A stretch of 64,000 nt of DNA from the sequence record OR062945.1; one strand, written 5' to 3'. The translations under genes were made by a program, and so were the position numbers. Below, in pieces: positions 3,078 through 36,928 of the stretch. The stretch is from Escherichia phage 308Ecol101PP. The notes under the pieces were generated by a model. That model saw only the letters and a program-made list of their open reading frames with translations, did no database searches and was not told where the DNA came from. Within the stretch, counting starts at the first letter, position 1, and each line of letters starts with the position of its first letter.

Positions 3078-3812
3078 ATGGAGCTAATCTTTTTAAGTGG
3101 CATCAAACGTAGTGGTAAAGACACTACTGCTGATTACATCAATTCAAACTTTAAATCCGTAAAATACCAATTAGCATATCCAATTAAAGACGCTCTAGCA
3201 ATAGCCTGGGGACGTAGGCATGCTGAAAATCCTGATGTATTCACAGAGTTGAAATACGAATACTTTGAAGGCATTGGATACGACCGTGAAACGCCATTAA
3301 ATCTCAATAAGTTGGATGTTATTGAATTATTGGAAGAAGCGCTAATTTATTTACAAAGTCAATATTTACCAATTAATAATGTTAAAGTATTATCATCGTT
3401 AGAAGGTGGATATTCATATCTAGATATTAAACCATACGAAGCCCTGCGTGAAGCTATAAATAATATCAACGACACATGGTCAATCCGCCGTCTTATGCAA
3501 GCCCTCGGTACGGATGTTGTCGTTAATTTATTTGACCGTATGTATTGGGTTAAACTTTTTGCATTAAATTATATGGATTATATTGGAAGTGATTTCGATT
3601 ACTATGTTGTAACCGATACACGCCAAGTCCATGAAATGGAAACCGCTAGAGCGATGGGTGCTACAGTTATTCATGTGGTTCGCTCTGGTACGGAATCCAC
3701 TGATAAACATATTACAGAAGCTGGGTTGCCTATTGAAGAAGGCGATTTAGTTATTACAAACGACGGCTCTTTAGAAGAGCTTTATTCTAAAATTGAAACA
3801 ATCTTAAGGTAA
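3078..3812 (+). CDS. 1: Deoxynucleoside monophosphate kinase gp1
   Basis: MELIFLSGIKRSGKDTTADYI... P-loop; ...RRLMQALGTDVVVNLFDRMYWVKLFAL...ARAMGATVIHVVR...DLVITNDGSLEEL matches T4 gp1. Confidence 0.9.
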   Translation: MELIFLSGIKRSGKDTTADYINSNFKSVKYQLAYPIKDALAIAWGRRHAENPDVFTELKYEYFEGIGYDRETPLNLNKLDVIELLEEALIYLQSQYLPINNVKVLSSLEGGYSYLDIKPYEALREAINNINDTWSIRRLMQALGTDVVVNLFDRMYWVKLFALNYMDYIGSDFDYYVVTDTRQVHEMETARAMGATVIHVVRSGTESTDKHITEAGLPIEEGDLVITNDGSLEELYSKIETILR

Positions 3813-3816
3813 TAAA

Positions 3817-4502
<686 letters not shown>

Positions 4503-5448: not shown

Positions 5449-5811
5449 ATGAAATATCACGTATATGCTGATTTTGAAGCAAATCCTTCTAAAGACCCTG
5501 ATTGTCGTTTGATACGCAGACCATTTGATTCAGCAGCTCAAGCATGGGCTTGGATTAAAACTTGTACTCCTTCTTACACTTTCTTTGAAGTGGTAGACGA
5601 TAACGGAGTTCTGCATCCAGAACCTACAGAAACTATTAATTTCCTTCTGTTTGCTGGTTATGACTGTTATCCTCTTGGTGGTATTGACGACCTTGTTGCT
5701 ACAGGAAAAACTGTTGAGGCTCTTCGCGAAATTTATAAAAACGCAGAAGAAAATTTTGACTGGTATCATATTGTTGATGCTCATACCTTTGAAATGGTGG
5801 AACATTCATGA
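5449..5811 (+). CDS. Hypothetical protein
   Basis: SD GGTGAG then ATG 5449 (MKYHVYADFEANPSKDPD...); stop/start overlap with upstream ORF. Confidence 0.6.
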   Translation: MKYHVYADFEANPSKDPDCRLIRRPFDSAAQAWAWIKTCTPSYTFFEVVDDNGVLHPEPTETINFLLFAGYDCYPLGGIDDLVATGKTVEALREIYKNAEENFDWYHIVDAHTFEMVEHS

Positions 5812-6098
5812 TTCTTTATGCTAAAGTATCGTCCATTGAGAATGGATATGAAAGCGATCAACGTGCAGCTAAAGCACTAGTTGATGACTACGGTATTCTG
5901 ACTAACTTTGAGGTTGAAAAGGTTTATATCGACCGTTCATCTTCGCAAGTTAAATTACTCTGTGAAGACGATAAATTTAACACAGTTAACTTTGATTTCT
6001 TTATTGAAACAGAAAAAGGCCCTCTTGAATATGATATTTTCAAGAATCCTTTGAAATTACGTTGCATTGAATATAATTACATTAATATGGTACGGTGA
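5808..6098 (+). CDS. Hypothetical protein
   Basis: ATGA overlap with upstream gene; 96 aa. Confidence 0.6.
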   Translation: MILYAKVSSIENGYESDQRAAKALVDDYGILTNFEVEKVYIDRSSSQVKLLCEDDKFNTVNFDFFIETEKGPLEYDIFKNPLKLRCIEYNYINMVR

Positions 6099-6102
6099 GT
6101 AA

Positions 6103-6618
6103 ATGAATATTTGTTTAGGCAGTACAATTCCTAAGGGTTACGTAATTGATGTCACTACTTGGGAAAATGACGGCGACAACTATAAAACCAAAACATTATT
6201 TGGTGTAGAAGAGCATGAGCTCCAACAGTTTAAATATCTCTTAAAGAAATTTAAGAGCCGTCATTCCAGCACTAAAGCTGAACGTTACTGTGGTAATACA
6301 CTATTCAGTGATTGTTCGCTTTTAATCTATGAATACTTGGTTGAAGGACTGTTCTCAGACCAGCTTTATCCAGAATTCATTAAAAAGGTCTTTGGTATCG
6401 AAGTTGACCTTGGTGACAAATCCGAAGAAGATGAAACACGTGTATTCGACCTATTCTTTGAGAGCGGAGATGAGATATCTCAAGGACTTATTGATATTCT
6501 TGGCTATGCTTCCGAATACTATGATTACGATTTCTTGCGTGTAGTTGAACGTGTTGAATTCGCTTATATTGAAGAAGAAATTGTTTTGCCGACTGTTAAA
6601 ATGATTGATTTGCTTTAA
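6103..6618 (+). CDS. Hypothetical acidic protein
   Basis: SD GGTGAG before ATG; 171 aa. Confidence 0.65.
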   Translation: MNICLGSTIPKGYVIDVTTWENDGDNYKTKTLFGVEEHELQQFKYLLKKFKSRHSSTKAERYCGNTLFSDCSLLIYEYLVEGLFSDQLYPEFIKKVFGIEVDLGDKSEEDETRVFDLFFESGDEISQGLIDILGYASEYYDYDFLRVVERVEFAYIEEEIVLPTVKMIDLL

Positions 6619-6697: not shown

Positions 6698-6772
6698 GGC
6701 CCTGTAGCTCAATGGGAGAGCTGTCAGCTCATAACTGATAGGTAGCTGGATCGAAACCAGCCAGGGTCACCA
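6698..6772 (+). tRNA. tRNA-Met (anticodon CAT; could be Ile2 if lysidinylated)
   Basis: Hand-folded cloverleaf: acceptor GGCCCTG/CAGGGTC, D stem GCTC/GAGC, anticodon stem GTCAG/CTGAT with loop CTCATAA, T arm GCTGG-ATCGAAA-CCAGC, encoded CCA. Confidence 0.8.
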
Positions 6773-6775
6773 ATT

Positions 6776-6852
<77 letters not shown>

Positions 6853-16986: not shown

Positions 16987-17247
16987 ATGAAAATGTATCA
17001 AGAATTTATCGCTGAAGCAGATGCCAAAGGTCCTAAATTTAAAGTTAAAGCTTTCATTGGTGATGCGGAAGACTTTGGCTCATTAAAACGTAATGGGTAT
17101 TCTTTCTTAGGTGGCGATGGTAAAGAAATCAACACCTATGCAAAACGTAGTGAAATTGCTTATGTTGTAGCAAGCCCTAAAGTAGATGTTGACGATATTG
17201 GATACGATTTTAACAACTTTGGAATTATTTCTGGCGGTAAAGCTTAA
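16987..17247 (+). CDS. Internal protein (ipII/ipIII-like), capsid-targeted
   Basis: Starts MKMYQEFIAEA (CTS leader); adjacent to denV as T4 ipII/ipIII. Confidence 0.65.
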   Translation: MKMYQEFIAEADAKGPKFKVKAFIGDAEDFGSLKRNGYSFLGGDGKEINTYAKRSEIAYVVASPKVDVDDIGYDFNNFGIISGGKA

Positions 17248-17250
17248 ATT

Positions 17251-17280
17251 GTTTACGCTTAAGTATTAATATGGTATAAT
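17251..17280 (+). promoter_or_regulatory. Early promoter (GTTTAC, 18 nt spacer, TATAAT)
   Basis: Consensus hexamers upstream of CTS gene 17311. Confidence 0.55.
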
Positions 17281-17310
17281 TACTCTATCAAAACAAATAA
17301 GGAAACAAAA

Positions 17311-17640
17311 ATGAAAACGTATCAAGAGTTTATCACTGAAGTTACATTATCTGCGGAACAGAAAGCTGCTATCGAAGAAGGTAAAAATCCCAAAGTAACA
17401 TATAAAGTAAATGGTAAAGGCGTTTTTGATGGCTTGGTTCAAGACCCTGAATTGAAAAAAGCTCTTTCTAAAACTAATGCGTACTTTGCTCCTAAATTTA
17501 ACGCAGCCGGTGTACTTATTGGATTGGATGTATTCAACTCTAAAGGTGTTCTATCTAATGCCTTTGGTTATGCCGCTAACAAAATTACCAAAGCCGAATG
17601 GGAATCCAATACCAAACAAGCTCAAAAGCCTAGAGTATAA
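17311..17640 (+). CDS. Internal protein (ipII/ipIII-like), capsid-targeted
   Basis: Starts MKTYQEFITEV (CTS leader); promoter 17251. Confidence 0.65.
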   Translation: MKTYQEFITEVTLSAEQKAAIEEGKNPKVTYKVNGKGVFDGLVQDPELKKALSKTNAYFAPKFNAAGVLIGLDVFNSKGVLSNAFGYAANKITKAEWESNTKQAQKPRV

Positions 17641-17812
17641 TTCTTGCCTAATAAAGGGAAACGCAACCTCTCCTTATGAACGTCGAGTCCTCTAAGTGAT
17701 GTACCTTTTCCAACCTGTAATAAGGTCGAGCGCAATGCGGTAATGGGTTTACATAGCGAGTCGAAGGACCTAACATGTGCCACGGAACGGCCCAAACCTT
17801 AAGAGAAATAAT

Positions 17813-18352
17813 ATGAGAACATTTTTAACTGGACCTTATCTATCCCTGATGAATGCTTTTACACACCATTCTGATGCTAGAGTAGAAGAAATTTGTAAGA
17901 ACGGTTATGTCCCACCATTTGAAGACGTACTCAAGCAGTACTGTACACTTCGTTTAGACGGTGGTAGACAATCAGGTAAATCGACCGCAGTAACTAATTT
18001 TGCTGTTAATTGGCTGTATGACGGTGGAACAGTTATTGTTCTTTCTAATACTTCAGCTTACGCTAAAATTTCTGCTGGCAACATTGAAAAAGAATTTTCT
18101 CGTTATTCTAGCGACGATATTCGATTCCGTTTATTTACTGATTCTGTCCGTAGTTTTATTGGCAATGAAGGTTCTAAATTCCGTGGATTAACGCTTTCTC
18201 GTATTCTGTATATAATTGACGAGCCTATTAAAGCTCCTGATATGGATAAGATTTACAACATACATATTAAAACAGTCCAACACTGTTGCAAAAGCAAATA
18301 TTGCATCAGTGGTATTGCTCGTCCTCAATTTTTTGTGATTGGAATGCAATGA
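17813..18352 (+). CDS. P-loop NTPase-like protein
   Basis: Walker A-like GGRQSGKST; ATG 17813 after SD AGAGAAA. Confidence 0.6.
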   Translation: MRTFLTGPYLSLMNAFTHHSDARVEEICKNGYVPPFEDVLKQYCTLRLDGGRQSGKSTAVTNFAVNWLYDGGTVIVLSNTSAYAKISAGNIEKEFSRYSSDDIRFRLFTDSVRSFIGNEGSKFRGLTLSRILYIIDEPIKAPDMDKIYNIHIKTVQHCCKSKYCISGIARPQFFVIGMQ

Positions 18353-18657
18353 TGACCACTATTGAAGTTTTTGAGTATTGTTATAACAGCCCAGTATGCA
18401 ATAAAAGGGCTCTTGTAGAAAATTACGAGATTTACCATTTTAAACCTAAACGATATCGTTTGACTAAAGGTCCGTTCGCAGGGCAGCAGGTTCTTTGTAC
18501 TGCTCCTAATGCACGGTTGATGACTAGTATTCCGCATTTCAAAATGGAATTTATTGATGGGCCATTTAAGGGATTAATCACTCAAAGTTTAATGGCGTTT
18601 AATTCCGACCCATTTTTGATTAAAGAAAAATCTTGGATAAATTTATTTTCTAATTGA
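18349..18657 (+). CDS. Hypothetical protein
   Basis: ATGATGA overlap with upstream gene; 103 aa. Confidence 0.55.
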   Translation: MMTTIEVFEYCYNSPVCNKRALVENYEIYHFKPKRYRLTKGPFAGQQVLCTAPNARLMTSIPHFKMEFIDGPFKGLITQSLMAFNSDPFLIKEKSWINLFSN

Positions 18658-18663
18658 GGTTAT

Positions 18664-19026
18664 ATGAAAGCATATCAAATTCTTGAAGGCACACACAAAG
18701 GCACTATTTATTTTGAAGACGGTACTCAAGCCCGGATTATTGTCTCTAAGACTTTTAAAGAAGACGCTATTGTAGACCCGGAAATTTTCTACGGTTTGAA
18801 TGCCCGTGAAATTGAAATTGAACATCAACCTAAAGTTAAAATTGAAGGTGGTCAACACCTGAACGTTAACGTTCTGCGTCGTGAAACTCTGGAAGATGCA
18901 GTTAAGCATCCGGAAAAATATCCGCAGCTGACCATCCGTGTATCTGGTTATGCAGTTCGCTTTAACTCTCTTACTCCAGAACAGCAGCGCGACGTTATCG
19001 CTCGTACCTTTACTGAGAGTCTATAA
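18664..19026 (+). CDS. grcA: Autonomous glycyl radical cofactor (GrcA/YfiD; T4 Y06I-like)
   Basis: C-terminal ...[60 protein letters not shown] with RVSGY glycyl-radical motif; matches E. coli GrcA as I recall it. Confidence 0.85.
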
Positions 19027-19229
19027 TGGCTAAATTGATTATAGAAGGGACTGAAGATGTTTTAAAATGTTTTGCCGCCTGGTTTAGTTGCTCAGGCGAG
19101 CAATCATTCATTGAAGCATTTAGAATGGGTGATATTACTGGAAAATATCCGTCAACCGATATCACTGTACGCGGATATGGTATTAATGAGCCTATCCAAT
19201 TGGTCGAATATGACCCTTGCCACCGATGA
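19026..19229 (+). CDS. Hypothetical protein
   Basis: TAATG overlap with grcA-like gene; 67 aa. Confidence 0.5.
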   Translation: MAKLIIEGTEDVLKCFAAWFSCSGEQSFIEAFRMGDITGKYPSTDITVRGYGINEPIQLVEYDPCHR

Positions 19230-19240
19230 GGAAATTCCTT

Positions 19241-19507
19241 ATGTCGATTGAAGACATCAAAGGCTACAAGCCACATACCAATGATAAAATCAGTAAAGTG
19301 AACGCTATTAAAGACGCAGAAGTCCGTCTTGGATTGATGTTTGATGCTCTGATTGAAGAAGCATATATCTTGAAAGAAAATGAATCAGAGCAACAAACCA
19401 AAGAAGATATGGATGCAGTGCAGGCTCTTAAGTATGCTAAGCAACATCTAAAAGAAGCCAGCATGTGGGCATGTCGTGCAGTATTTCGACCTGAGGAAAA
19501 ATACTAA
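19241..19507 (+). CDS. Hypothetical protein
   Basis: SD GAGGAAA then ATG 19241. Confidence 0.55.
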   Translation: MSIEDIKGYKPHTNDKISKVNAIKDAEVRLGLMFDALIEEAYILKENESEQQTKEDMDAVQALKYAKQHLKEASMWACRAVFRPEEKY

Positions 19508-19722
19508 TGGCTTCTACTATTACTGGGTTATTGGACTTTCAAGAAAAGGTCAACAAAATTTGTAGTGAATACTTAAAGTATCTTGAAGAAGACCTTGAAG
19601 ATTGTAAGGAAGAAGGCGAAGAAGACTATGCTGACCAGCGTCGTCGCCAAATCGAAGAGATGAGGCATTTCGCCGATATGGTATCTAAAGAATCTTGGGC
19701 TTTAACTCCATTTTATCAATAA
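19507..19722 (+). CDS. Hypothetical acidic protein
   Basis: TAATG overlap; 71 aa. Confidence 0.55.
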   Translation: MASTITGLLDFQEKVNKICSEYLKYLEEDLEDCKEEGEEDYADQRRRQIEEMRHFADMVSKESWALTPFYQ

Positions 19723-19726
19723 AGTA

Positions 19727-19777
19727 GTTTACTTCTCCTCTAGTTGTGTTACTATAGACCTGTCAACTAGAGGAGAA
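19727..19777 (+). promoter_or_regulatory. Early promoter stem-loop cassette; 14-bp perfect IR pairing anti-SD with SD
   Basis: GTTTAC; TTCTCCTCTAGTTG / CAACTAGAGGAGAA flanking TGTTACTATAGACCTGT. Confidence 0.65.
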
Positions 19778-19783
19778 ATCAAA

Positions 19784-20242
19784 ATGACTATCAATTCAGA
19801 CGTTTTTATCCGCCGCAATAAACTCCGTCGAATCTTTGAAACGGAGTTCCGCAAAATAAATGCCGGTATAAAAGATGCTGCAAAGTCTCTTGGACTACCA
19901 GGCTTTCATATCAAGTATTCTCAACATCTCTTAGATCGTGCCATCCAGAGAGAAATAGATGAGAACTACGTTTTTGAATTATTTCGTAAAGTAAAAAATC
20001 ATGTTAAAGAAGTTGCAGAATTTTTATCAATGCCGGCACGTCCAGATGTTGATGAAGATTTTGTCGAAGGTGTCGAATACCGTCCAGGCCGTTTAGAAAT
20101 AACTGACGGAAATCTTTGGTTAGGACTTACAGTTTGTCGCGAAAATCCAGCATTCAAAATGAAGACTCTTCAATGCAGAATGGCTATTATTAACAGTAAA
20201 CGACTACCAGGAAAAGCTTCTAAAGCAGTGATTAAAATCTAG
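19784..20242 (+). CDS. regB: RegB-like endoribonuclease (tentative)
   Basis: 152 aa (T4 RegB is 153 aa); lies between denV and tk as regB does in T4; promoter cassette 19727; call rests on size, position and partial recall of the sequence. Confidence 0.55.
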   Translation: MTINSDVFIRRNKLRRIFETEFRKINAGIKDAAKSLGLPGFHIKYSQHLLDRAIQREIDENYVFELFRKVKNHVKEVAEFLSMPARPDVDEDFVEGVEYRPGRLEITDGNLWLGLTVCRENPAFKMKTLQCRMAIINSKRLPGKASKAVIKI

Positions 20243-20250
20243 AGGTAAAC

Positions 20251-20793
20251 ATGAGAAAAGCACTACTCGCTGGTCTATTTGCTCTTTCATTATCAGCACA
20301 TAGCTCCGAGCATACTTTTAGTAATGTCCAACTCGATAACTTGAATTATGCTTATCAGTTTGGGGAACAGTTTTCTAAGGACGGAAAATTTAAAACGCAT
20401 GAAAATATGCATAAGAAAGGACTTGGATACATAATGGCCGCAATACTATGGCAGGAATCATCTGCCGGTATTAATCTTAAAGATAAGAAAGGTCACCATG
20501 CGTATGGAATGTTCCAAAATTATCTACCAACAATGAGGGCAAGAATTAACCAGCTTGGTTATAATATGACTGATGCCCAAATTAAGAAAATGCTATCTAA
20601 GCGGTCTAATTCAGCCAGATGGGCTTATATCGAATTTTCTTATTGGTTAAATATACATAATGGGGATATAAGAAAAGCTATATCCTCATATAATGCGGGA
20701 TGGAAGACAAGTGCTGGAAGTAAATATGCTTCTGAAGTCCTAGAAAAGGCTAATTACCTTAAATCAAACAAACTACTGGAAATAAAAGAATGA
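20251..20793 (+). CDS. Secreted lytic-transglycosylase-like (SLT-domain) protein
   Basis: N-terminal signal peptide MRKALLAGLFALSLSAHS; ...AILWQESSAG...AYGMFQ resembles the SLT catalytic E-S ... G-x-x-Q motif. Confidence 0.6.
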   Translation: MRKALLAGLFALSLSAHSSEHTFSNVQLDNLNYAYQFGEQFSKDGKFKTHENMHKKGLGYIMAAILWQESSAGINLKDKKGHHAYGMFQNYLPTMRARINQLGYNMTDAQIKKMLSKRSNSARWAYIEFSYWLNIHNGDIRKAISSYNAGWKTSAGSKYASEVLEKANYLKSNKLLEIKE

Positions 20794-34173: not shown

Positions 34174-34647
34174 ATGTTATTATCTGGCAAATTATACAAA
34201 GAAGAAAAACAAAAATTTTATGATGCACAGAATGGTAAGTGTCCTATTTGCCACCGTGAATTAGACCCTGATGTTCAAGGTAACCATCTTGACCACGACC
34301 ACGAATTAAACGGGCCAAAAGCAGGTAGAGTTCGTGGGTTACTCTGTAATCTGTGCAACGCAGCAGAAGGCCAAATGAAGCATAAGTTCAACCGTTCCGG
34401 TCTTAAAGGACGTGATGTCGACTACCTCGAATGGCTTGAAGCTCTTCTTGCTTATTTGAAACAAGATTATTCTGATAATAATATCCATCCTAATTTTGTT
34501 CCAGACAAAACTAAAGAGTTCTCAAGACTAGGTAAAGAGGAAATGATGGCTGAGATGCTTCAAAGAGGATTTGAATATAATGAATCTGATACCAAAACAC
34601 AATTAATAGCTTCATTCAAAAAGCAGCTTAGAAAGAGTTTAAAATGA
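34174..34647 (+). CDS. 49: Endonuclease VII (Holliday junction resolvase) gp49
   Basis: MLLSGKLYKEEKQKFYDAQNGKCPICHRELDPDVQGNHLDHDHELNGPKAG...; near-identical to T4 gp49. Confidence 0.95.
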   Translation: MLLSGKLYKEEKQKFYDAQNGKCPICHRELDPDVQGNHLDHDHELNGPKAGRVRGLLCNLCNAAEGQMKHKFNRSGLKGRDVDYLEWLEALLAYLKQDYSDNNIHPNFVPDKTKEFSRLGKEEMMAEMLQRGFEYNESDTKTQLIASFKKQLRKSLK

Positions 34648-36461
34648 AAATTGAAAAAGAAATTGAAGGATTAATTCATAAAACTAATAAAGATCTTTTG
34701 AACGAGAATGCTAATAAAGATTCTCGTGTTTTTCCAACTCAACGGGACCTTATGGCTGGTATTGTGTCTAAGCACATTGCCAAAAATATGGTCCCGTCTT
34801 TTATTATGAAAGCACATGAAAGCGGAATTATCCATTTCCATGATATTGATTATTCCCCTGCTCTTCCATTTACTAATTGCTGTTTAGTAGATTTAAAAGG
34901 AATGCTTGAAAACGGGTTTAAGCTAGGTAATGCTCAAATTGAAACGCCTAAATCGATTGGTGTTGCTACTGCAATTATGGCACAAATTACCGCACAGGTT
35001 GCTTCACATCAGTACGGCGGAACGACTTTTGCTAATGTAGATAAAGTACTTTCTCCTTATGTTAAACGCACCTATGCAAAACATATTGAGGATGCAGAAA
35101 AATGGCAAATCGCTGATGCGTTGAATTATGCCCAATCTAAAACAGAAAAAGACGTATACGATGCATTTCAAGCTTATGAGTATGAAGTAAATACTCTTTT
35201 TAGCTCAAACGGTCAAACGCCTTTTGTAACAATTACATTTGGTACTGGAACTGACTGGACTGAACGAATTATTCAGAAAGCAATTCTTAAAAACCGCATT
35301 AAAGGCCTTGGTCGTGATGGAATAACTCCTATTTTCCCTAAACTTGTTATGTTCATTGAAGAGGGTGTCAATCTTTATAAAGACGACCCGAACTATGATA
35401 TTAAGCAGCTTGCTCTAGAGTGTGCAAGCAAAAGAATGTATCCTGATATTATTTCAGTTAAGAACAATAAAGCTATCACTGGTTCATCTATTCCTGTTTC
35501 TCCAATGGGTTGTCGTAGTTTCTTGAGTGTATGGAAAGATTCGACTGGAAATGAAATTCTTGATGGACGTAATAATCTTGGTGTTGTAACACTGAATCTT
35601 CCTCGTATTGCGTTAGATTCTTATATTGGAACACAATTCAATGAACAGAAATTTGTTGAGCTATTTAATGAACGAATGGATCTGTGTTTTGAAGCCTTGA
35701 TGTGTAGAATTAGTTCTTTAAAGGGTGTTAAAGCAACTGTTGCTCCTATTCTTTACCAAGAAGGTGCATTCGGGGTTCGTCTTAAACCTGATGACGATAT
35801 AATTGAGTTATTTAAAAACGGTAGAAGTTCAGTGTCCTTAGGATACATTGGTATTCACGAATTGAATATTCTTGTCGGTCGTGATATTGGACAAGAAATT
35901 TTAACTAAAATGAATGCTCGTCTTAAGCAGTGGACTGAAAGAACCGGTTTTGCTTTTAGCTTGTATTCTACTCCTGCTGAAAACCTGTGCTATCGCTTCT
36001 GTAAACTTGATACCGAGAAATATGGAAGTGTAAAAGATGTTACTGATAAAGGCTGGTACACTAATAGTTTCCATGTTTCAGTAGAAGAAAATATCACTCC
36101 GTTTGAAAAGATTTCTCGCGAAGCCCCATATCATTTCATTGCGACTGGCGGACATATTTCTTATGTTGAACTTCCTGATATGAAAAATAACCTAAAAGGT
36201 CTTGAGGCTGTATGGGATTATGCTGCACAACATTTAGATTATTTTGGTGTTAATATGCCAGTAGATAAATGTTTTACATGTGGAAGTACTCATGAAATGA
36301 CTCCTACTGAAACCGGATTTGTTTGTTCTATTTGTGGAGAAACTGACCCTAAAAAGATGAACACCATAAGAAGAACATGCGGTTATCTTGGAAATCCTAA
36401 CGAACGCGGATTTAATCTCGGCAAAAATAAAGAAATCATGCATAGGGTTAAACACCAATGA
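34644..36461 (+). CDS. nrdD: Anaerobic ribonucleoside-triphosphate reductase NrdD (no intron)
   Basis: 605 aa continuous ORF; C-terminal Zn ribbon CFTCG...CSICG and glycyl radical motif RRTCGYLG. Confidence 0.95.
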   Translation: MKIEKEIEGLIHKTNKDLLNENANKDSRVFPTQRDLMAGIVSKHIAKNMVPSFIMKAHESGIIHFHDIDYSPALPFTNCCLVDLKGMLENGFKLGNAQIETPKSIGVATAIMAQITAQVASHQYGGTTFANVDKVLSPYVKRTYAKHIEDAEKWQIADALNYAQSKTEKDVYDAFQAYEYEVNTLFSSNGQTPFVTITFGTGTDWTERIIQKAILKNRIKGLGRDGITPIFPKLVMFIEEGVNLYKDDPNYDIKQLALECASKRMYPDIISVKNNKAITGSSIPVSPMGCRSFLSVWKDSTGNEILDGRNNLGVVTLNLPRIALDSYIGTQFNEQKFVELFNERMDLCFEALMCRISSLKGVKATVAPILYQEGAFGVRLKPDDDIIELFKNGRSSVSLGYIGIHELNILVGRDIGQEILTKMNARLKQWTERTGFAFSLYSTPAENLCYRFCKLDTEKYGSVKDVTDKGWYTNSFHVSVEENITPFEKISREAPYHFIATGGHISYVELPDMKNNLKGLEAVWDYAAQHLDYFGVNMPVDKCFTCGSTHEMTPTETGFVCSICGETDPKKMNTIRRTCGYLGNPNERGFNLGKNKEIMHRVKHQ

Positions 36462-36928
36462 ATTATGATAGATTTTATCCTTGCGATTTTGTGAATGGCC
36501 CTGGTTGCAGGGTCGTTCTTTTCGTTACAGGTTGTTTGCATAAATGCGAAGGGTGTTATAATAAATCAACATGGAACGCTAGAAATGGTATTCCATTCAC
36601 GGGTGAAACACTAGAGCAATTAATTGAATGTTTGAATAATGATTATATAGAAGGATTAACTATAACTGGAGGAGACCCTCTCTATCCCGATAACAGAGAT
36701 GTTGTTCATTGCATTGCTCAAACAGTAAAAAATCTTTATCCCAATAAAAGCATTTGGTTGTGGACAGGATATAAGTTTGAAGATATTAAACAACTAGAAA
36801 TGCTTAAATATGTTGATGTTATTATTGATGGGAAGTATGAGAAAAATCTTCCGACTAAAAAGATGTGGCGAGGATCAGATAATCAGCGACTTTGGTCAAA
36901 TACCGATGGGGTGTGGAAACATGATTAA
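36458..36928 (+). CDS. nrdG: Anaerobic RNR activating enzyme NrdG (radical SAM)
   Basis: CLHKCEGCYN Cys cluster near N-terminus; ATGA overlap with nrdD. Confidence 0.9.
   Translation: MNYDRFYPCDFVNGPGCRVVLFVTGCLHKCEGCYNKSTWNARNGIPFTGETLEQLIECLNNDYIEGLTITGGDPLYPDNRDVVHCIAQTVKNLYPNKSIWLWTGYKFEDIKQLEMLKYVDVIIDGKYEKNLPTKKMWRGSDNQRLWSNTDGVWKHD

Follow-up and report, generated by a model that had tools for sequence, protein, structure and literature searches.

A 64,000-nucleotide stretch of Escherichia phage 308Ecol101PP (OR062945.1) was analysed and is referred to as the window. At positions 18664..19026 it encodes a small protein with a glycyl-radical domain; this gene and its parts, the GAGG before it and the genes nrdD and nrdG lie on the plus strand. 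The gene is very probably a Mosigvirus ortholog of vs.6 of phage T4 (protein Y06I) and encodes a spare-part protein of the GrcA type. It appears to be an old phage gene whose radical-domain half has been overwritten recently, and more than once, from grcA of the host. As judged from the nucleotide sequence, only the last ~185 nt of the gene have been copied recently from E. coli. An earlier note on this stretch had proposed a relatively recent acquisition from the host. The proposal holds for these last ~185 nt and has to be dropped for the gene as a whole, since the N-terminal 60 residues are only 28% identical to the host protein.

Mosaic structure of vs.6

A maximum-chi2 scan of the codon alignment with E. 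coli grcA places a breakpoint at 18841|18842 (0 of 5000 permutations reached as high a value). Left of the breakpoint 89 of 178 positions differ from E. coli grcA (50% identity), right of it only 6 of 182 (96.7%). The breakpoint separates a phage-lineage 5′ part (18664..18841; nt 1–178, codons 1–59 plus 1 nt) from a putative host-derived conversion tract (18842..19026; nt 179–363), which encodes E61 to L120 and includes the stop codon. The first codon of the tract is the first codon of the EGGQH motif and the tract therefore covers exactly the glycyl-radical domain. All six differences are synonymous, none is non-synonymous, and one perfect run extends over 103 nt. When the whole window was compared by megablast with 5,426 complete E. 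coli genomes, the tract alone matched (18842..19031/19034 in grcA; pflB at 80.5%). The rest of the window, including the reductase genes nrdD and nrdG, has no megablast-level similarity to any of these genomes.

The earlier note had also described the C-terminal 70 residues as essentially those of E. coli GrcA. This is slightly generous: the last 60 residues (EGGQH...TESL) are identical at 60 of 60 positions and the last 70 at 63. The identical 60 residues and the similar DNA that encodes them are what recent capture of the entire gene from E. coli would produce. Such a capture is highly improbable, because the 178 nt at the 5′ end share only half of their positions with grcA. Furthermore, the N-terminal part groups with its homologs in phages of the Straboviridae and Demerecviridae and apart from those of bacteria. 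The surroundings of the gene are conserved and of the T4 type, and 1,588 phage records contain a homolog. The breakpoint analysis refutes whole-gene capture.

The N-terminal parts of the phage proteins follow phage taxonomy. The identity of the window protein in this part is 90% to T4, 72% to Jiaodavirus, 68% to Karamvirus, 50% to RB16, 41% to Phi1 and 34% to T5-like phages. Phage N-terminal parts are 16–35% identical to bacterial ones, and the latter are 72–90% identical among themselves from Escherichia to Haemophilus. Profile-profile alignment of the phage and bacterial N-terminal parts by hhalign gives a probability of 94% (E=1.2e-7, 61 columns, 28% identity). Because the N-terminal parts are homologous end to end, the phage gene is, by these profiles, a full-length homolog of grcA that diverged anciently, rather than a radical domain fused to an unrelated one.

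The 5′ edge of the tract is uniform among T-even phages. In 638 T-even records the matches are 95–99.5% identical to E. coli grcA and all align from one common first base. The 3′ edge varies. In the window the last three codons and the stop (GAG AGT CTA TAA; 19015..19026) carry phage-type synonymous variants in the alignment and mark this edge. Among the tracts seen, that of the Tequatrovirus OES_C-2 is the most host-like, with one difference from E. coli in 185 nt and the host end codons AGC CTG kept. The vs.6 gene of OES_C-2 (429–785) also carries a deletion of two codons in its N-terminal part (REIETQP instead of REIEIEPQP). Three synonymous changes are private to the window (18945 C>T, 18972 G>T and 18978 G>A relative to E. 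coli; 18945..18978). All three are third-position changes from G/C to A/T. None of them is present in the closest relative, phiE142, and the body of its tract is therefore identical to E. coli.

Beyond the stop codon (19024–19034) the window reads TAATGGCTAAA, E. coli reads TAAGGCTTAAG and K. pneumoniae reads TAAGGCTAACG. The common GGCT(A)A past the stop hints that the tract once extended a few bases further and that a 1-nt insertion made the next ATG; the stretch is too short to call. On the other side, in the 14 codons 5′ of the tract (18796–18841), only 3 of 13 third positions differ from E. coli grcA, compared with 11 differences at first or second positions. When restricted to third positions, a breakpoint test falls ~14 codons 5′ of the breakpoint from all sites. 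This third-position match may be the remnant of an older and longer conversion tract, or may result by chance from A/T-ending codons.

A host-identical stretch of 185 nt could in principle recruit host reads during assembly of a phage genome. That the mosaic is such an artefact has a vanishingly small probability. The same in-frame junction is found in ~640 independent T-even records, including the T4 reference. The window tract additionally has private single-nucleotide changes, phage-type terminal codons and a stop codon that overlaps the ATG of the next phage gene. A misassembly is rejected on these grounds. The ~185-nt tract is the one place where reads may be misassigned between E. coli and T4-like phages, in both directions. 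No description of the nucleotide-level mosaic of vs.6 was found in the searchable literature; a prior mention is possible in the T4 genome review (PMC150520), which lies outside that search.

Age, donor and direction of the proposed conversion

Over the 60 codons of the tract, the synonymous divergence (dS) from E. coli is 0.146 for the window, 0.046 for T4 and 0.022 for OES_C-2. Between E. coli and other bacteria the same codons give a dS of 0.36 (Citrobacter), 0.56 (K. pneumoniae) and 1.02 (Salmonella). Most differences of the phage tracts from E. coli occur in one phage only. Between the window and T4, the dS within vs.6 is 0.39 for the N-terminal part and 0.08–0.15 for the tract. The dS values of flanking genes in the same comparison range from 0.94 to saturation (vs.7 1.28, vs.4 1.67, regB 1.90, vs.1 0.94). 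Between phiE142 and T4, synonymous differences number 0 of 42 in the body of the tract and 11.5 of 37.7 in the N-terminal part (Fisher p=4.5e-5). On these synonymous distances the tract is younger than the rest of vs.6 and younger than the flanking genes.

The protein sequence carries no such information. The vs.6 product of phage RB16 is identical to E. coli at 60 of 60 residues (non-synonymous divergence, dN, of 0), yet its gene differs at 31 of 44.5 synonymous sites (dS~2). The age of a transfer can therefore not be read from amino-acid identity to the host, and the very high protein similarity that the earlier note took as a sign of recency does not serve as one. More generally, such identity to a host protein is a poor means of dating a transfer.

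The RB16 case also bears on a reading without any recent exchange, in which strong purifying selection on the radical domain would alone account for the similarity of an ancient phage gene to host GrcA. The domain protein is indeed extremely conserved everywhere, and RB16, 05F and Miller keep 57–61 of 62 residues without nucleotide similarity. However, synonymous sites of the tract are nearly unchanged in T-even phages (0–6 of ~45 differ) and saturated in RB16, Slopekvirus and Karamvirus. In RB16, Miller, 05F and Karamvirus, which have no host-like tract, the dS of the tract is at least that of the N-terminal part. Thus, there is no intrinsic synonymous constraint on the tract. The tracts are also specific to the host species at 21 mostly synonymous sites. 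Selection on its own is contradicted by the synonymous-site data and these host-specific sites, and is very improbable.

Klebsiella phages carry tracts of another host type. Jiaodavirus phages of Klebsiella (KMI12, RCIP0102 and the IMG/VR locus L124) have a phage-type N-terminal part as in the window. Their tracts are 94–96% identical to K. pneumoniae grcA, 92% to K. aerogenes and ~85–88% to E. coli. The Klebsiella-type tract starts at the same codon as the E. coli-type tract. In L124 there is one difference from K. pneumoniae in ~155 nt, followed by ~25 phage-specific nt at the end. Of the 21 tract sites that separate E. coli from K. pneumoniae, all 21 are of the E. coli type in the window, and 19 (L124) and 16 (KMI12) are of the K. 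pneumoniae type in the Klebsiella phages. The protein follows the same pattern: the residues are LLDAVEH in the Jiaodavirus phages, which is the Klebsiella host type, and LEDAVKH in E. coli and its phages. The G+C content at third codon positions (GC3) in Jiaodavirus is 0.58–0.60 in the tract and 0.22–0.27 in the N-terminal parts, with 0.67 in the K. pneumoniae tract.

When 80 IMG/VR loci were compared with 82 enterobacterial or Pasteurellaceae grcA genes, only the T-even and Jiaodavirus clades exceeded 90% identity; the others reached 70–84%. The K. pneumoniae grcA was taken from a 5.37-Mb chromosome (CP125156.1, filed in PLSDB as 'plasmid unnamed2'), K. pneumoniae being absent from the 80 loci of the bacterial contig scan. 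The K. aerogenes NCTC10006 record LR134122.1 has a frameshift inside grcA, from a sequencing error or a pseudogene, and is unusable. Another bacterial record is also unusual: a 253-kb contig labelled Vagococcus sp. WN89Y (NZ_JBQPOM010000029.1) contains an enterobacterial-type grcA whose product is 91% identical to E. coli GrcA. This contig is probably a contamination or a mislabelled assembly.

Sequence identity on its own carries no direction, and the 3′ halves of grcA in E. coli and K. pneumoniae could have been copied from phages. The composition speaks against it. The GC3 of the E. coli tract (0.43) is close to that of its own N-terminal part (0.39), as compared with 0.18–0.27 in the phage N-terminal parts; the K. 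pneumoniae tract has 0.67, as compared with 0.22 on the phage side. Furthermore, the host tracts differ from each other roughly like related enterobacterial species, and GrcA is uniform among bacteria as far apart as Escherichia and Haemophilus. Phage-to-host transfer is rejected on GC3 and the host divergence pattern and is extremely improbable. The sequences favour the host-to-phage direction: the tract follows the host in composition, the host tracts diverge as expected under vertical inheritance, and GrcA is uniform from one bacterial family to the next.

The number of conversions is less certain. Possibly, a single E. coli conversion took place in one T-even phage, and recombination between phages later carried the converted allele, or just the tract, from one of the genera Tequatrovirus and Mosigvirus to the other, so that only the event in the Klebsiella phages was independent. 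Exchange of the locus between the genera is suggested by the dS of the N-terminal part of vs.6, which is 0.39 between genera compared with at least 0.94 in the flanks. All T-even records also have one common 5′ edge, and many have the AGT codon near the end of the gene (third-last codon, counting the stop). However, the tract is significantly younger than the N-terminal part of the same gene and at least a second event, confined to the tract, is therefore needed. The mostly private differences form a star-like pattern centred on the host sequence. Additionally, the variants at the 3′ edge differ between phages, with the host AGC CTG kept in OES_C-2. A single event followed by spread is thus unlikely, though it deserves consideration.

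Repeated overwriting from the host would have E. coli as donor in Tequatrovirus and Mosigvirus and K. pneumoniae as donor in Jiaodavirus. In the simplest mechanism, the phage gene would undergo patch-type homologous recombination with host grcA in the infected cell. T-even phages, which are highly recombinogenic, break the host DNA into fragments, and these would be a plausible source of the converted tract. The 5′ limit would be set where homology between phage and host begins, i.e. at the domain boundary, and the 3′ limit would fall within the last 10–30 nt. The chances are about even that the radical-domain half is in concerted evolution with grcA of the current host, maintained by recurrent conversion so that the spare part matches the PflA and pyruvate formate-lyase (PFL) of that host. 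Conversion may be ongoing and self-reinforcing, or there may have been few historical events and subsequent spread between phages.

If concerted evolution applies, the ~170–185 nt of near-perfect homology, the sole such stretch in the 64 kb, would let host fragments recombine repeatedly. A strictly lytic phage that degrades host DNA would then repeatedly re-import a segment of a host gene, for which no description was found in the searchable literature. The pattern suggests either that an exact match of the radical domain to host PflA and PFL matters, or that homology alone drives homogenisation. The locus would be a clean natural case of homologous recombination from a host into a T-even phage. 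A sharply bounded, host-species-specific tract in an old phage gene, seen independently in E. coli and Klebsiella phages, is apparently undescribed.

Gene, locus and function

The gene is a real open reading frame (ORF) of 120 amino acids (ATG to TAA). A Shine-Dalgarno-like GAGG (18656..18659) was read from the sequence 4 nt 5′ of the ATG and overlaps the stop codon of the preceding vs.7-like ORF. The TAA of vs.6 overlaps the ATG of the following vs.5-like gene (19026..19229). In a promoter and terminator scan of 17000–20500, counts equalled the shuffled expectation and nothing specific was found 5′ of vs.6. Rfam and tRNA scans of the whole window revealed nothing near vs.6 and only two tRNAs, at 6698–6852. 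These are adjacent genes for tRNA-Met(CAT) (6698–6772) and tRNA-Arg(TCT) (6776–6852).

The assignment to the GrcA-type spare-part proteins is based on the ORF, Pfam, phrog_1209, the identity to T4 and matches to the Protein Data Bank (PDB). It confirms the earlier description of a GrcA-type protein at these positions. Residues 59–101 match Pfam Gly_radical PF01228 (E=2e-18). The radical-glycine motif, which includes RVSGY, is present, and Gly95 aligns with GrcA G102 and PFL G734. The Gly95 codon GGT (18946..18948) is the predicted radical site, from RVSGYAV in alignments with GrcA and PFL. The match to phrog_1209 is full-length (1–120 of 121, E=6e-63). In the PDB, GrcA (6OWR) is matched with E=2e-42 and PFL residues 696–759 with E=3e-26.

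BLASTP against E. coli GrcA (from NZ_CP023386) gives 74 of 100 identities (E=7e-53). Over the whole protein, the identity is 94% to T4 vs.6 and 99–100% to phiE142 and Av-05. The whole protein is thus far closer to phage homologs than to host GrcA, an outcome that the earlier note had named as refuting its reading.

With 120 amino acids the ORF is hemmed by neighbouring genes and encodes a small stand-alone protein (the ~14-kDa class of GrcA), not a full-size glycyl radical enzyme. A full-size PFL would have a catalytic barrel of ~760 amino acids with the active-site residues Cys418/Cys419. On the corresponding profile (TIGR01255) only positions 679–744 of 744 are matched, with 89.6 bits compared with a cut-off of 994, and this assignment is rejected. 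In several phage records the label 'pyruvate formate-lyase' is an over-annotation of the 120-residue vs.6.

The DNA of the gene is 98–99% identical to that of Escherichia phages phiE142, moskry and Av-05 (Straboviridae, Tevenvirinae, Mosigvirus), and the window belongs to a Mosigvirus, an RB69-like T-even phage. As compared with the annotations of moskry and T4, the order of genes is that of T4 (vs.8, vs.7, vs.6, vs.5, vs.4, vs.3, regB, vs.1). The gene itself is already known, as the ortholog of T4 vs.6/Y06I and under a GrcA annotation in hundreds of phage records; the RefSeq name of T4 vs.6 is "autonomous glycyl radical cofactor GrcA". It was listed among the few T4 ORFs of unknown function that are conserved in all T4-like genomes compared (Nolan et al. 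2006, PMC1524935). Megablast matches to the gene are found in 755 phage records. The tblastn homologs, in the 1,588 records mentioned above, range over Tequatro-, Mosig-, Jiaoda-, Slopek-, Karam-, Pseudoteven-, Krisch-, Biquarta- and Schizotequatrovirus and the T5-like Demerecviridae.

Some homologs have other surroundings. A GrcA homolog is located just 3′ of a tRNA-Met gene in the T5-like phage FFH1 (tRNA 51–126, homolog 401–769) and in the T4-like Aeromonas phage 31.2 (tRNA 201–272, homolog 392–760). Further homologs are present in Vibrio Schizotequatrovirus and in jumbo-phage contigs of 345–357 kb (L123, L125 and L126). No host-like DNA tract is present in any of these homologs (70–84% identity to any sampled grcA).

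Two further observations concern the neighbourhood. In moskry (3150–3994 and 5580–6122) the homologs of vs.8, vs.7 and vs.1 are labelled 'endoribonuclease RegB', which looks like annotation spill-over; the true regB ortholog is only the ORF that matches 19784..20242 of the window. Upstream of the locus, a gap of ~135 nt without a long ORF (17641–17776) lies between the ORF 17311..17640 and the vs.8-like ORF 17777..18352. The gap is locally richer in G+C (up to 47%) and is conserved at 95–99% in Mosigvirus and at 86–88% in Salmonella phage S16 and one Klebsiella phage. It folds no better than shuffled sequences (z=+2.1) and has no Rfam match.

According to the passage of PMC8683613 that cites Wagner et al. 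2001, T4 Y06I and E. coli YfiD/GrcA are the only two biochemically validated spare-part proteins. Both are described there as being radicalised by the PFL-activating enzyme and as restoring oxygen-cleaved PFL; the rescue by T4 Y06I depends on PflA and was obtained in vitro. The earlier note had named Y06I as a GrcA-like protein with this repair activity, in agreement with that passage, and the ORF of the window is its ortholog. Since the window protein is 94% identical to Y06I and its radical domain matches that of GrcA at 100%, it most likely acts as a spare part of PFL.

Host PflA (radical SAM) would install the radical on Gly95. The activated protein would dock on PFL that has been cleaved by oxygen at G734 and replace the lost C-terminal domain. 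The rescued PFL would restore the conversion of pyruvate to acetyl-CoA and formate, and the production of ATP and formate would be sustained under microaerobic or anaerobic conditions. T-even infection stops the expression of host genes, which would end the resupply of host GrcA. Presumably the phage brings its own copy because host expression is shut off while the spare part is consumed stoichiometrically.

Formate is reportedly the hydrogen donor of class III ribonucleotide reductases; a live PFL would therefore also feed the phage reductase. The genes in question are nrdD (34644..36461; Pfam NRDD PF13597, E=5e-171), which encodes a class III ribonucleotide reductase, and nrdG (36458..36928; Fer4_12, E=8e-48; Radical_SAM), which encodes its activase. 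Both are intact, as had been proposed earlier. They do not lie alongside vs.6: the pair is 15.6 kb downstream, which makes it a functional context only, with no physical linkage. A benefit during infection and the formate link to NrdD are put forward as suggestions. The link would give a concrete form to the investment in glycyl-radical metabolism that the earlier note had proposed.

The presence of NrdD, a second oxygen-sensitive glycyl-radical enzyme encoded by the phage, raises the question of a different function. The protein might be a decoy that titrates PflA or blocks PFL, or might repair the oxygen-cleaved NrdD of the phage itself. A role in nucleotide metabolism was guessed in an earlier genome paper (PMC1524935). 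Direct repair of NrdD is unlikely, because the domain is of the PFL/GrcA type (identical to GrcA, and similar to PFL 696–759 as given above) and not of the NrdD type. The restoration of cleaved PFL by T4 Y06I in vitro, as reported in the cited passage of PMC8683613, also argues for the spare-part role. A different function is, taken together, improbable.

Several points weigh against the reading of vs.6 as a GrcA-type gene with a recently and repeatedly converted half. The tract is short (~45 synonymous sites), so that its dating is coarse. RB16 and Phi1, E. coli phages of other genera, have no recent tract and conversion is therefore not universal. Conversions in the E. coli phages could look independent if recombination between phages has recently carried one converted allele from one T-even genus to another. 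The compositional contrast, which the earlier note had suggested as a check, is weak. The GC3 is 0.37 in the tract and 0.27 in the N-terminal part, compared with 0.30±0.04 in the genes of the window and 0.43 in the E. coli grcA tract, which is itself low. The phage tract is thus above the gene mean, but an equally high GC3 is reached by 17% of the 60-codon windows in phage ORFs. With a codon-probability score at the 18th percentile as well, the check is not decisive. The G+C profile at the scale of the window has only a mild bump at 18860–19040. On the NCBIfam equivalog of GrcA (TIGR04365) the protein scores 159.1 bits, below the cut-off of 170 bits, and only residues 18–120 are matched; E. 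coli GrcA scores 233.9. The low score results from the divergent N-terminus. Finally, the function of the window protein is taken from its T4 ortholog.

Comparison with known systems

Like E. coli GrcA (YfiD, P68066; nuclear magnetic resonance structure 6OWR), the window protein is a stand-alone glycyl-radical domain protein. The radical glycine and its surrounding motif are identical and the N-terminal parts are homologous end to end. The N-terminal 60 residues of the phage protein, on the other hand, share the low identity noted at the outset and are 7 residues shorter. Furthermore, its gene belongs to a lytic phage, whose signals drive the expression. The spare part imitates and takes the place of the C-terminal glycyl-radical domain of PflB (PDB 1H16, residues 696–759), which is matched over 64 residues. 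In contrast to PflB, the phage protein has no catalytic barrel. The DNA identity to pflB is only ~80% and the donor of the tract is therefore grcA and not pflB.

T4 Y06I (vs.6; NP_049730, 'autonomous glycyl radical cofactor GrcA') is the ortholog of the window protein. Both proteins have 120 amino acids, and their genes have a common neighbourhood and a common mosaic with an E. coli-type 3′ tract. They differ at 7 residues, six in the N-terminal part and the seventh being R73H of T4 in the radical domain. Unlike T4 Y06I, the window protein keeps the exact E. coli sequence of the radical domain. At the nucleotide level the window tract has three additional synonymous changes from G/C to A/T.

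Intragenic recombination between host and phage has reportedly occurred in psbA and psbD of cyanophages. As in vs.6, a host-derived metabolic gene is carried by T4-like phages and sequence patches are exchanged between host and phage. The present case differs in its phage, a T-even one that degrades the DNA of its host, and in the patch, which is one precisely bounded domain of ~185 nt. The rest of vs.6 is also far more diverged from the host gene than psbA.

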